From Octopus vulgaris (taxonomy: Eukaryota): a stretch of 64,000 bases of DNA. The number at the start of each line of letters is the position of its first letter. The stretch's first letter is position 1. Shown here piece by piece: positions 1,533 to 54,184 of the stretch. Below the pieces are notes generated by a model, which was not told the origin of the DNA, did no database searches, and saw only the letters and a program-made list of their open reading frames with translations. Where the stretch lies: the NCBI GenBank assembly GCA_951406725.2, contig OX597827.1, positions 8,122,001 through 8,186,000 on the forward strand, in the 5' to 3' direction. The position numbers were made by a program, and so were the translations under genes.

Positions 1533-1860
1533 AATTAATATAGGATAAAATTTTTTTCGGGAAAAAAATTTTATCAATGGCCAGCATATCAAAAAATGCC
1601 TTTAAAGGTAAAATTTATACATAATTTACAAGATAAGGGCAGAAGAAAAATTCTAATGTCAAATATGCTGAAACAAAAAATTGTCAACCATTAAAAATTT
1701 ATGCGTCTCGAAACAAACCGATAGAAATCTCTAAAAAATTCGTTATTACCGTATTGGCCCAATTTCGGGGTTAATTCATAAGAAATTTTCCCCTCTTCAG
1801 CAGCAAATACGCGAGATATTTGGCATTAAATTTTTCTTCTGCCCTTATCTTGTAAATTAT
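1533..1860 (-). mobile_element. Penelope-like element terminal (pLTR) fragment with internal inverted repeat, inserted in (TA)n
   Basis: Flanked on both sides by (TA)n. 1621-1666 is the reverse complement of 1816-1860. Contains a hammerhead motif. Family assignment is inferred from this architecture. Confidence 0.6.
1744..1809 (-). ncRNA. Type I hammerhead ribozyme with canonical core
   Basis: Minus strand reads UAUUUGCUG-CUGAAGA-GGGG(aaaauuucuuaugaauuaa)CCCC-GAAA-UUGG g CCAA-UA-CGGUAAUA. Both core boxes are intact and stems I, II and III pair. The AUA cleavage site falls between 1752 and 1751. Confidence 0.8.
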
Positions 1861-2040
1861 ATATATATATATATATATATATATATATATATATATATAT
1901 ATATATATATATATATATATATATATATATATATATATATATATATATATATATATATATATATATATATATATATATATATCAATATATATATATATCA
2001 ATATATATGTATATATATCAATATATATATACAAGGTATA

Positions 2041-2373
2041 CTGTGTGGCACCTTGGGCAAGGGTCTTCTACTCTAGCCTCAGCCCAACCAAAGCCTTGCA
2101 AGTGGACTTGGAAGACGGAAACTGAAAGAAGCCTATCATACACATATATGTATATATTTATGTGTGTGTGTGTCAGTGTTTGTCCCCCCTTATCGCTTGA
2201 CAACCTATGTTGGTCTGTTTACATCCCTGTAACTTAGCGTTTCAACAAAATAGATTGATAGAATAAGTACTGAGCTTACAAAGAATAAGATCTGGGGGTC
2301 AATTTCTTCAACTAAATGTGGTGCTCCAGCATAGCCGTACTCAAATGACTGAAACAAGTTAAAGAATAAAAGA
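2041..2373 (+). mobile_element. tRNA-derived SINE family A, 5'-truncated
   Basis: Matches the body and tail of the full copies (e.g. 30144-30573), including the tail GGTGCTCCAGCAT...TGACTGAAAC. Confidence 0.8.
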
Positions 2374-2574
2374 ATATATACACATACAGATATGTGAGTG
2401 TGTGTGTGTGTGTGTGTGTGTGTATACAAATGATTTTCTTTCAGTTTCCATCTACCAAATCTACTCACAACACTTTCCTCTGACTGAGGCTACTACAGAA
2501 CAAAACTGAACCCAATAATTCTACACTTGAAACATGAACTTCTTAATACCACAAGCATGAATACTCCTCTGTGT

Positions 2575-3905
2575 GTTTATATATACATATATATATATAT
2601 ATATATATATATATATATATATATATATATATACATATATATACATATATATATATACATATATATATATATATACATATATATATATATGTATATATAC
2701 ATATATATACACATATATATATATATATATATATATACACATACATATGTTTGTGTGTGTGTGTATGTATGCAAGTATATATATATATATGTGTGTGTGT
2801 ATCTAGTTACCTAAATATATAAGCATGTAAATCAATATTTCATATATAAATACACATACATACATACATACGTACATACATACATACATACATACATACA
2901 AACATACATACATACATACATACATACATACATACTTACACACATACATACATACATACATACATACATACATACATACATACAAACGTACATACATACA
3001 TACTTACATACATACATACATACGTACATCCATACTTACACACATACATACATACATGCATACAAACGTACATACATACATACATACATACATACATACA
3101 TACATACATACATACATACATACATACTTACATACATACATACATACGTACATCCATACTTACATACATACATACATACATACATCCATACATACACACA
3201 TACACACATACATACAAGCAATATACACATCTGTGTCTATGTATATTCACAGAAGCACATGTTCTGTCATGCATAATGTCTTCTGTCTATAACATTGTAA
3301 AGCATTTCTTTTTTCCTTTTTTCAAGTTGTGCTCTTTTCCCCTACTCCATTGTTCTTTTATCTATTGTTAAGTTGGTATTACCTTCAGCTACTCGCCCCC
3401 CCCCCGCCACTCTCTCTCTCTCACACACACACACAAACCCTGCAAATGTTTCCTCATCTCACCTGTACTCTTGCTATTTACTTGATCAATACATCTATTT
3501 ATCTGTCTGTAGTTTTTTTTACCCGTCTGTTTTTTTCTTTGATATATATATATATATATATATATATATATATATATATATATTATATATATATATATAT
3601 ATATATATATATATATATATATATATATATATATATATATATATATATATATATATATATATATATATATATATATATATATATATATATATATATATAT
3701 ATATATATATATATATATATATATATATATATATATATATATATATATATATATATATATATATATATATATATATATATATATATATATATATATATAT
3801 ATATATATATATATATATATATATATGTATATGTATAAGTGTATATCTATCTATCTATCTATCTATCTATCTATATCATCATCATCATCATCATCATCAT
3901 CATCA
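2575..3905. repeat. Compound microsatellite block (TA)n/(TACA)n/(TATC)n/(CAT)n
   Basis: Directly visible; includes a (TA)n tract of roughly 280 bp at 3542-3826. Confidence 0.95.
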
Positions 3906-4190
3906 TCGTTTAACGTCTGTTTTCCATGCTAACATAGGCTGGACTGTTCGACCGGGGTCTGGGAAGCCAGGAGGCTGCTCCAGGCTCCAGTCTGATCTGG
4001 CAGTGTTTCTACAGCTGGATGCTCTTCCTAGCGCCAACCACTCCGTAAGTGTAGTGGGTGCTTTTTACGTGCCACCAGCACAGGTGCCAGGGGAGGCTGG
4101 CGACGGCCACAATCGCTTGGTGGTTTTTACATGCTACCGACACGGAAGCCAGTCAAGGCAATGCTGGCATCGGCCACATACGGATGGTGC
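3876..4190 (-). mobile_element. RTE LINE 3' UTR fragment with (GAT)n tail
   Basis: Same sequence as the 3' end of the RTE copy at 18217-19300 (GGATGCCCTTCCTAACGCCAACCACTCC-like motif). Confidence 0.8.
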
Positions 4191-4301
4191 TATATATGTA
4201 TGTATATACTGTTGTGTCTGGGGAGAGTCATTCTCTTTTTGTGCCTTATTATTTAACACACTCACCAGTAAAATTTCCACTTATTTCTTATTTTTATTTT
4301 C

Positions 4302-4338
4302 CTAAAACTTTCGTTGCGTCTTGCAACCTTTTCAATAG
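4302..4338 (-). ncRNA. Hammerhead-like motif, U3-A8 core variant, in a Penelope-like fragment
   Basis: Minus strand reads CUA-UUGAAAA-G-GUUGC aagac GCAAC-GAAA-gu-UU-UAG. Stem II is a perfect 5 bp; stem I is only 3 bp and stem III is minimal. Confidence 0.45.
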
Positions 4339-51518: not shown

Positions 51519-51946
51519 ATGAATAAATTGTTAGGAAATCCTAAAATAAATTACTGCTCAAATATTATCTGCAAAATAAGTGCCAGTATTTATGCTAATA
51601 TAGAGTAAATATACTTAGTGTGTGTGCTTGTTGGCATATGCATATGTAAACACACACACACACATACACACACACACACATACATACACATACATACACA
51701 CACATACACACACACATACACACATACACACACATACACACACACATACACACACATACACACACATACACACACATACACACACACACACACACACACA
51801 CACACATACACACACACATACACAAATACACACATATATACACATACACACACACGCACATACACACACACACACACACACACACATACACACACACACA
51901 CACACACACACACACACATACATACACACATTATATGTGTATATAT

Positions 51947-52619
51947 ACTCTTTTACCCTTTTACTCTTTTACTTGTTTCAGTCATGTGACTGTGGCCATG
52001 CTGGAGCACCGCCCACCTTTAGTCGAGCAAATCGACCCCAGGACACATTCTTTGTAAGCCTAGTACTTATTTTATCGGTCTCTTTTTTGCCGAACTGCTA
52101 AGTTACGGGGACGTAAACACACCAGCATCAGTTGTCAAGCAATGTTGGGAGGACAAATACATACAAACAAACACGCACATGCATATATATATATATATAT
52201 ATATATATATATGTATATATACGACGGGCTTTTTTCAGTTTCCATCTATCAAGTAGCTTGCTTACCAACCACATGGTTCCAGGTTCAGTCCCACTGCATG
52301 GCACCTCGGGCTGGCCAAAGCCTTGTGAGTGGATTTGGTAGACGGAAACTGAAAGAAGCCCGTCGTATATATGTATATATATGTATGTGTGCGTGTATGT
52401 TTGTGTGTCTGTGTTTGTCCCCCTAGCATTGCTTGACAACCGATGCTGGTGTGTTTATGTCCCCATCACTTAGCGGTTCAGCAAAAGAGACCGATAGAAT
52501 AAGTACTGGGCTTACAAAGAATATGTCCCGAGGTCGAGTTGTTCGACTAAAGGCGGTGCTCCAGCATGGCCGCAGTCAAATGACTGAAAGAAGTAAAAGA
52601 CTAAAAGAGAGTAAAGAGT
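51947..52619. mobile_element. Head-to-head inverted pair of family A SINEs
   Basis: Minus copy 51947-52248 directly abuts plus copy 52251-52619. Confidence 0.85.
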
Positions 52620-52636
52620 ATTTAGATTAGGACTAA

Positions 52637-52932
52637 TTTGGAGTAAAGATTATTTGCCAACATAACATGGCAGTCCTGGTTTAGGACGAATGTTGCTGTA
52701 ATTTAGCCCCAGGAGACATCGTCTCCAGCTGGCTATATGACATGATCTGTGTCCTTATGTTATCAAACAAGGAAATCTAGTACCCCATTCAGCTCAAAAT
52801 AATATCTGTGTATTGTGATTTGTGGGTTATTTCCCTTCATCAGCACAGAATAATTGTTTGGTTAGAGGTGGCACTGGCAAATTCCTAAACCAAGACTGCC
52901 ATGTTTTGTTGGCAAATAATCTTTACTTCAAA
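52637..52932 (-). mobile_element. Penelope-like fragment with 50-bp inverted ends and a decayed hammerhead (52805-52849)
   Basis: 52637-52686 is the reverse complement of 52882-52932. Minus motif UCUGUG-CUGAUGA-A-GGG aaauaa CCC-acAAA-UCACAA-UA-CACAGA lacks G12. Confidence 0.6.
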
Positions 52933-53064
52933 GTATTGTTGCTGAATATCTCTCGTTGTGAGATTTACAAATAGTAATTTATTATTGTTCAATGTCTGCT
53001 TTAAATCTTGAAATAAAACAGCCAATTTAATCTGAAGATGCTAACATTAATTTTCTCTAGGCAA

Positions 53065-53725
53065 GTGAAAGGCAGATTGCATGATGCCTGTGTACGAACA
53101 GCTATGATACATGGCAGTGAAACATAGGTTGTAATCGCTGAGGACATGTGTAGGCTTGAAAAGAATGAAGCTAGTATGCTTCACTGGATGTGCAATGTCA
53201 GTGTGCAGGTATGACAAAATGTAAGCATCTTATGAGAAAAGTTGGGCATAAGAGGCATTAAATATGGTGTACAAGGAAGATGACTGAACTGGTATGGTCA
53301 TGTGATATGTATTGATGTGGACAGCTGCTTAAAGAAGTGCTGATCTCTAACTGTGGAGGGAACCTGTGAAAGACGTAGACCCAGAAAGACAAGGGACTAG
53401 GTGGTGAAGCATGATATTTGAACATTAGTCCTTATGGAGGCAATGACTAGTGACCAAGACCTTTAGCAATATGCATTGTTTGAAAAGACTCGTCAAGCCA
53501 AGGGAAATCATAGTTGTGACTGATGCCGGTGTCACGTAACTGGACATGCAAGAAGCACCCATTGCACTCTTGGAATGGTTGGTGTTAGGAAGGGAATCCA
53601 GCCATAGAAACCATGCCACATCAGTCTGGAATTTGGTGCAGTTCTCTAGCTTACCAGTTTCAGACAAACCATCTAACCCATGCCAGCATGTAAAGCAGAC
53701 ACTAAATGGTGAAGTTGATGATGAT
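53065..53725 (+). mobile_element. RTE LINE fragment
   Basis: VKGRLHDACVRTAMIHGSET*...RLEKNEASMLHWMC, same family as 18986-19240. Confidence 0.85.
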
Positions 53726-54133
53726 ATATGTGTATGTATATATCATCATCATCATCATCATGCTGGCATAGGTTTGATGGTTTTACTGGCTTGGCATGCT
53801 GGAAAGCTGCTCCGGTCTGGTTTGGCATGGTTTTCTACGGCTGGATACCCTTCCTAACGCCAATCACTCTGACAGTGTAATGGGTGCTTTTACATGCCAC
53901 TGGGATGGGATGAAAGGCAAAGTCAACTGCTAAGCATTTCGACTGGCGCACTAATAATTCTGCCAGCTTGCCGCCCTATATATATATAAAAGTACATATA
54001 TAGTGACTTGATATAAAGTGACTTGATCTGAGATCGTGTGCTGGAATGAAAACAATTGCAGCGTGGAAGGTGTTTATAAGTCATTTAAGAAACACACAAA
54101 AACCGTTAGATTCACTTCAACATTTAAATTTAA

Positions 54134-54184
54134 TTTGTCAAAATATTTTCGTCACTTTGAGACTGCGACCTGTTCACTGACAAA
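54134..54184 (-). ncRNA. Type I hammerhead-like motif, G3-C8 core variant, in a Penelope-like fragment (about 54020-54215)
   Basis: UUUGUCA-GUGAACA-G-GUCGC agucucaaa GUGAC-GAAA-AUAU-UU-UGACAAA. Stem I is a perfect 7 bp, stem II is 5 bp and stem III is the palindrome AAUAUU. Confidence 0.62.

Follow-up and report, generated by a model that had tools for sequence, protein, structure and literature searches.

Why should one 64,000-nucleotide stretch of the Octopus vulgaris genome carry ten hammerhead-like motifs whose cores differ from one another, even at the pair formed by positions 3 and 8? The stretch, referred to here as the window, covers positions 8,122,001-8,186,000 of contig OX597827.1 (assembly GCA_951406725.2), has 35% GC and contains many microsatellites. 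The original prediction held that it contained a dense, diverse set of non-canonical ribozymes from different Penelope-like families, which a search for the consensus CUGANGA would miss. We consider it probable that the motifs are the ends of eight repeat families, three of them Penelope-like and the rest likely so, with inherited cores, and that bases 3 and 8 are kept paired since the master elements need the active ribozyme fold, with self-cutting that is probably slow. Judged from their sequences, the non-canonical families are described as hammerhead-like variants, not as proven hammerhead ribozymes.

All predicted motifs were present in their places and on their strands with one topology, the type I order, in which the core is enclosed by helices I and II and by a helix III that is short and in most cases palindromic. 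The motifs, and the pseudo-long terminal repeats (pLTRs) and untranslated regions (UTRs) around two of them, were as follows.

1744..1809, minus strand: type I hammerhead motif with an intact canonical core, in a repeat with an inverted partial copy
4202..4948, minus strand: pLTR and CA-rich 3′ UTR of the U3-A8 family, whose relatives extend into remnants of a reverse transcriptase (RT)/endonuclease open reading frame (ORF)
4302..4338, minus strand: hammerhead motif with U3-A8 (U3 at 4335), an extra G after A9 and a helix I of only 3 bp
18080..18114, minus strand: decayed copy of the U4C family, G5 and A13 lost
38252..38328, plus strand: U4C motif with a long helix II and a palindromic helix III, all core bases present, U-U mismatch at the base of helix II
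38808..38929, both strands: inverted pair formed by one element and its inverted partial copy, from an older family (81-86% identity to relatives), both arms decayed (about 5 nt deleted in the plus arm; G5 and G12 lost in the minus arm)
41311..41346, plus strand: copy of the A6U family, G8 lost through CpG decay
41941..41975, plus strand: copy of the U4C family, G12 lost
52805..52849, minus strand: copy of a canonical-core family, G12 lost
53977..54200, minus strand: pLTR stump of the G3-C8 Penelope-like family with a partial tail, adjoining (TA)n, with relatives longer upstream
54134..54184, minus strand: type I hammerhead motif with G3-C8 (G3 at 54177) and an extra G after A9, the remaining core intact

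The 3-8 identities C-G, U-A (4302) and G-C (54134), the additional purine after A9 and the change of U4 to C were found as predicted; A6U at 41311 and a fourth pair, A3-U8, had been overlooked. Helices I and II of the 54134 motif have 7 bp and 5 bp, and its palindromic helix III has 6 nt; the 4302 copy carries a private change within its helix III palindrome. As predicted for the flanks, BLAST among the nine elements linked only 18080 and 41941 (83%); these therefore form a single family, and eight families stand behind the window motifs. Core bases were lost in six of the ten motifs (18080, 41941, 41311, 52805 and both 38808 arms), which were still recognisable through their families. The claim of a dense and diverse set of non-canonical cores, overlooked by a CUGANGA search, was thus supported at family level and was not supported for these decayed copies or for the 1744 and 52805 families, which are canonical. 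A U-U at the base of helix II, as in 38252-38328, was also observed in other, unrelated families (L270:178, L278:6747, L408:688; L numbers denote loci outside the window).

Family states were counted across the genome (2.8 Gb, 227 contigs) with exact patterns in which the tested position was left free, and the reversed-pattern controls gave 0 matches. States were read from the first 100 matches listed for each family in assembly order, mostly on contig 1, and from a random sample of 800 kb in 80 stretches; exact patterns and random DNA were used because top-hit alignments favour look-alikes of the query. Every query belonged to a dispersed family, with 1,443 to 3,264 candidates at first look. 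The 54134 family gave 6,291 matches against 0 in its control; 93 of the 100 listed were G3-C8 and 7 were single changes, and a canonical C3-G8 consensus was looked for and not seen (0 of 100). G3-C8 was also the state of 8 of the 9 copies in the random sample. The 4302 family gave 2,350 matches, with U3-A8 in 95 of the 100 listed. In the 41941/18080 family (11,820 matches), position 4 was C in 73, U in 25 and A in 2 of the 100 listed, and C in 12 of 14 random-sample copies; since U4 is more frequent than decay at the adjacent CpG (4 of 100), a canonical subfamily likely exists. The 41311 family, with 20,359 matches, had U6 in 94, A6 in 3 and C6 in 3 of those listed, and U6 in 13 of 14 random-sample copies, and its remaining core persisted in A6U copies 72-93% identical to the window copy. 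Positions 4-5 of the 38808 family (41 rows) read TG 17, CG 15, CA 7 and other 2, a mixture that points to a C4-G5 master, and the rows of the 38252 family were divided between C4 (15) and U4 (16). The canonical core, C3 U4 G5 A6 N7 G8 A9 / G12 A13 A14, was found only in the 1744 and 52805 families; the others deviate at 3/8, where they are paired, or at 4 or 6.

The fourth pair came from two families outside the window, found by examining the sequence that follows Penelope-like ORFs (RT and GIY-YIG according to Pfam). The first gave 400 matches, with A3-U8 in 98 of the 100 listed, and the second gave 170, with A3-U8 in 92; both are related to a young family with a U3-A8 motif and numerous frames of 753 aa. 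As family states, therefore, each of the four Watson-Crick pairs at 3-8 is present within one genome, and the variant cores G3-C8, U3-A8, A3-U8, U4C and A6U are inherited family states, not the decay of copies. Exact matches summed over six variant families came to about 41,000, most of them with non-canonical cores.

Two side observations concern these families. A palindromic G3-C8 insertion with an identical inversion junction and identical outer flanks occurred at 8 of 40 sampled loci (L369, L370, L380, L382, L383, L386, L393, L399), and these copies therefore ride inside another, larger repeat. In the second A3-U8 family, G12 is followed by an additional base of varying identity (U 76, A 16, C 6, G 2 of the 100 listed; L270, L273), and the motif of the young 753-aa family may share this base or may lack N17.

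Pairing at 3-8 was also seen with a strict type I descriptor in which positions 3 and 8 were free. In the window it recovered three of the ten motifs (1744, 4302, 54134) and one further match, giving 4 Watson-Crick matches versus 0.27 Watson-Crick and 0.77 other per shuffle in 30 local dinucleotide shuffles. The 800 kb of random genome contained 27 matches (16 C-G, 6 G-C, 5 unpaired at 3-8) versus 3.6 per shuffle, so that a match rate at shuffle level, which was looked for, was not seen. Bases 3 and 8 were Watson-Crick paired in 22 of these 27 matches, paired in all 23 flank matches, and Watson-Crick paired in 92-98 of the 100 listed in each of the four non-canonical families (G3-C8, U3-A8 and the two A3-U8); no multi-locus cluster with an unpaired majority was found among 185 descriptor matches. 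The further window match, at 26222 on the plus strand, is U3-A8 with weak AT-rich helices and is probably due to chance. An Rfam scan of the window showed no hammerhead among 150 of 419 matches listed, those 150 being microsatellite-driven microRNA or small-RNA matches. When monomers and dimers were folded freely, helices I and II formed for 54134 and an inter-strand helix III for 1744, a result that was not decisive.

The families were connected to Penelope-like ORFs through their upstream sequences. Eight of 71 matches at the 5′ boundary of the G3-C8 family shared an upstream extension into a CA-rich UTR, and this UTR led to a motif in all 8 fetched loci, G3-C8 in 7 of them. In L429 the UTR lies downstream of the end of a GIY-YIG ORF (PF01541, 23.5 bits, cut-off 22.6), and the same ORF end followed by the G3-C8 family UTR was found in 35 of the 40 places scored, a count that includes the query's own. 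Relatives have open frames of up to 839 and 1025 aa, the motif itself not being read at those two places. For the 4302 family, L423, L036 and L051 show ORF remnants that pass into the UTR and then the motif, and L035 and L038 contain rearranged pieces; this ORF was assigned by RT/endonuclease motifs and by 48% identity to the G3-C8 family protein, its Pfam scores being below cut-off. A GIY-YIG-like ORF remnant of the 41311 family continues into the pLTR in L335. The 54134, 4302 and 41311 families, each with its pLTR downstream of an RT/GIY-YIG ORF and oriented the same way, are thus Penelope-like retrotransposons, in agreement with the original prediction, and the remaining five are likely so; a 76% relative of the 38808 family lies downstream of an ORF in L410.

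L404 contains a 717-aa frame flanked by two direct repeats that are 99.8% identical and both U4C. Pfam gave no match for this frame, which we take to be Penelope-like from its motifs and structure; the L404 motif has an additional U ahead of G12. No linked ORF was found in L261, which has two G3-C8 copies 6 kb apart, or in L273, and a 41941 copy ahead of an ORF in L401 was rejected as a linked pLTR, being a separate insertion into (TA)n. At L262:2945-5680, an ORF of the 753-aa group (~80% identical) lies ahead of a UTR and pLTR that belong to the 41311 lineage; the ORF of the 41311 lineage in L335 is only 29% identical to it, so that a chimera or a nested insertion is involved. L401-L407, L415 and L417 contained no fewer than three additional Penelope-like families whose open frames measure 700-960 aa, some of these families having UTRs longer than 1.5 kb and long-helix-II hammerhead motifs.

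The structure of the copies carried tail and inverted-copy signatures. Most G3-C8 copies were about 150 or 210 nt long, their 3′ ends were of two kinds separated by about 60 nt (short in 19, tailed in 23, intermediate in 3), and an inverted partner was present in 17 of 32 independent loci. Across families, inverted partners occurred at 6-15 of 19-29 loci in six families and at 1 of 29 in the 41941 and 41311 families; no tandem array was found over any window motif, the family matches being dispersed or inverted. Just upstream of the motif in long G3-C8 copies (L419:3751-3775, L424-L431, and the boundary at window position 54200) there is a stretch with a branch-point-like CTAAC, a pyrimidine run and an AG, which presumably resembles a splice acceptor. 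The 5′ ends of the short copies cluster a few bases from this site. A splice-junction origin of these ends was considered, and many short copies keep five bases before the acceptor-like site. The motifs had been predicted to lie mostly beside (TA)n, and (TA)6 or longer was found within 103 nt of six of the nine window elements versus 26% of random positions within 100 nt; 4302, 38808 and 52805 did not conform. At family level, 25-28 of 29 and 18 of 19 loci adjoined (TA)n in five families, 14 of 29 in the 54134 and 4302 families and 2 of 29 in the 52805 family, the background being 38%. An optional 3′ tail and a similar inversion pattern have been described for Penelope-like pLTR copies (PMC8557442, PMC11167929, from the text available), and the tail of about 60 nt in the 54134 family, the sole family counted, is longer than the 30-40 nt in print.

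The explanation that we favour is that selection on the active fold would keep bases 3 and 8 Watson-Crick paired in the master elements. At least four double changes were recognised, two in the 753-aa group by the RT tree and two in the group of L423 and L429, and all are Watson-Crick. Four of four paired, a coincidence of about 1% on a rough count, argues for selection on that fold. The tree had 5 of 11 inner forks open, long branches and no known reference elements, and was used solely for lineage grouping. According to the available text of PMC9901934, the crystal structure of the hammerhead shows bases 3 and 8 paired, and C3G/G8C was the sole double change there that rescued activity; natural swaps at a pair of the catalytic conformation argue for selection on that conformation. 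For cutting, two motifs would have to pair by way of the palindromic helix III, or the element's protein would have to assist, or both, and minimal Penelope hammerheads have been described as cutting weakly as dimers (PMC4209133, in part). Such slow cutting would trim the precursor RNA and would not produce the copied template, and solitary or decayed genomic copies would be inert.

Several results weigh against this explanation. Among 45 copy arms, 33 begin upstream of the core (20 of these 12-18 nt before helix I), so that the copied template was mostly uncut, and only 2 begin at the predicted cut site. RNA reads of organism C (two runs of one study; 1,652 and 1,286 reads on the G3-C8 element) showed no pile-up of starts or ends and no dip in depth at the cut site; they cover the element alike in both directions, often carry the upstream extension with the acceptor-like site and, coming from one study, are weak evidence on cutting. 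The swaps are confined to two related element groups and thus represent about four independent events, not dozens. Both A3-U8 families have a helix II of only 2 bp, and the second contains an unpaired A3-C8 sub-lineage (7 of the 100 listed). No ORF link was found for the 1744, 38252, 41941/18080 and 52805 families in the loci examined. A loose genome-wide pattern with a non-canonical 3-8 pair and a 2-nt CG helix III gave 367 matches versus 410 in the control, which is chance, and there is therefore no additional large family of that helix III class. The two largest families carry A6U and U4C, and in the available text of PMC9901934 every change in this core region except the G-C swap gave low activity.

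The presence of A6U and U4C in the biggest families argues that fast cutting is not required. It is tentatively possible that a single genome amounts to a natural saturation experiment with the hammerhead core, in which Penelope lineages with long frames use all four 3-8 pairs and the A6U and U4C families still cut, rescued by the element's protein or by pairing as dimers. Somewhat less probable, and on balance unlikely, is that the fold was kept while catalysis was relaxed or lost in many lineages, the shape serving the element's protein as a signal for binding or folding and some families spreading with dead ribozymes. The predominance of U6 and of C4 in the two largest families would fit it, as would U4C in both repeats of the young, long-framed L404 element, the lack of a cleavage footprint in the organism C reads and copy-arm starts, and insertion in vitro that was unimpaired by catalytic mutants (PMC11167929, in part). 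However, pairing of 3 with 8 is part of the catalytic conformation, the remaining core is kept across the divergent A6U copies, and a natural U4C viroid variant retains enough activity in vivo (PMC3088659, in part). Relaxed catalysis may apply to some families and selection on the active fold to others. That the masters drifted freely at 3 and 8, with paired states arising by coincidence, is very unlikely: the events are few, about four, and unpaired sub-lineages occur (A3-C8; G3-G8 copies), but two changes are required for every switch, a pair altered at both positions would be complementary about 1/3 of the time, which is the basis of the rough estimate given above for four of four, and with descriptors free at both positions no family proved to be mostly unpaired. 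It is scarcely credible, despite the six decayed window motifs and the chance-level loose pattern, that canonical copies decayed independently or that the matches arose by chance, and this reading is refuted for G3-C8, U3-A8, A3-U8, U4C and A6U by family patterns with 170 to 20,359 matches, 0 in controls and one dominant variant state each, together with the excess over shuffles in random DNA.

Selection on the active fold, the preferred reading, can be set against known systems, in each case as far as the text of the source was available. The elements resemble the metazoan Penelope pLTR hammerheads of Cervera and de la Pena 2014 (PMC4209133) in their type I order, short palindromic helix III and G10.1-C11.1, and likewise in the extra base between 9 and 10.1, the U3-A8 families, the many families per genome, the mostly solitary truncated copies and the inverted neighbours. 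The 56 representative motifs of that study (Fig. S3) all start CUGA or UUGA, whereas G3-C8, A3-U8, U4C and A6U were family states here, with four 3-8 pairs in one genome. Engineered C3G/G8C hammerheads (PMC11167929, PMC9901934, PMC8495972) carry the identical swap, which partly restored cutting there; in the anole Penelope hammerhead PAc it gave partial rescue, cutting occurred only with the element's protein, and cutting was dispensable for insertion in vitro (PMC11167929). In contrast, the swap described here is natural, amplified to thousands of copies and known from sequence alone. Among natural variants, Perreault et al. 2011 (PMC3088659) described U3-A8 covariation, viroid U4C, A6C and GAAA-box insertions; G3-C8, A3-U8 and A6U were not named in its available text, and its final alignments left out core mutants. 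Non-LTR retrozymes (PMC7229834; bioRxiv 10.64898/2026.07.22.740005) likewise carry type I hammerheads within non-coding repeats that are relatives of pLTRs, but they form head-to-tail arrays, whereas the window elements are tailed stumps, dispersed singly or in inverted arrangement.

Earlier work has thus already described minimal Penelope hammerheads, their occurrence as many families within a genome, U3-A8 and an additional base following A9 (PMC4209133), and likewise natural U4C (PMC3088659). Natural G3-C8, A3-U8 and A6U were not found in the text, figures aside, of the hammerhead literature searched, which included PMC3884650, PMC8495972, PMC6765202, PMC10085705, PMC6155905, PMC2920678 and PMC8557442; Lunse et al. 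2017, on variants of Penelope-like element hammerheads, and Przybilski and Hammann 2007 lie outside this coverage and may bear on novelty or activity. Our results added the copy number, the family-level proof, the ORF linkage and all four 3-8 pairs in one genome. No difference at position 3 or 8 occurred among the best-supported 40 of 94 differences in the organism C reads and in contigs of organisms D and E, so that the G3-C8 swap seems to be shared with related organisms.

The window also contains other repeats. Positions 36-895 (plus strand) hold what we take, by motifs, to be broken integrase-like frames of a long terminal repeat retrotransposon, and 13467-13859 and 62517-62915 (plus strand) presumably hold C-terminal fragments of RT ORFs of the long interspersed nuclear element type. 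Short tandem arrays built from pieces of abundant interspersed repeats were seen at 32285-32836 (3 x 184 nt), 23136-23358 (about 3 x 68 nt) and 25676-25801 (2 x 63 nt). Outside the window, L123:205-1340 (plus strand) has a 378-aa open frame that we assume to resemble a Tc1/mariner transposase.

It is puzzling that Penelope elements retain a hammerhead, since cutting is described as weak and as dispensable for insertion in vitro in the available text of PMC4209133 and PMC11167929. The octopus families form a ready, graded test set for variants of the hammerhead core, and search descriptors for such motifs should leave positions 3/8, 4 and 6 free.

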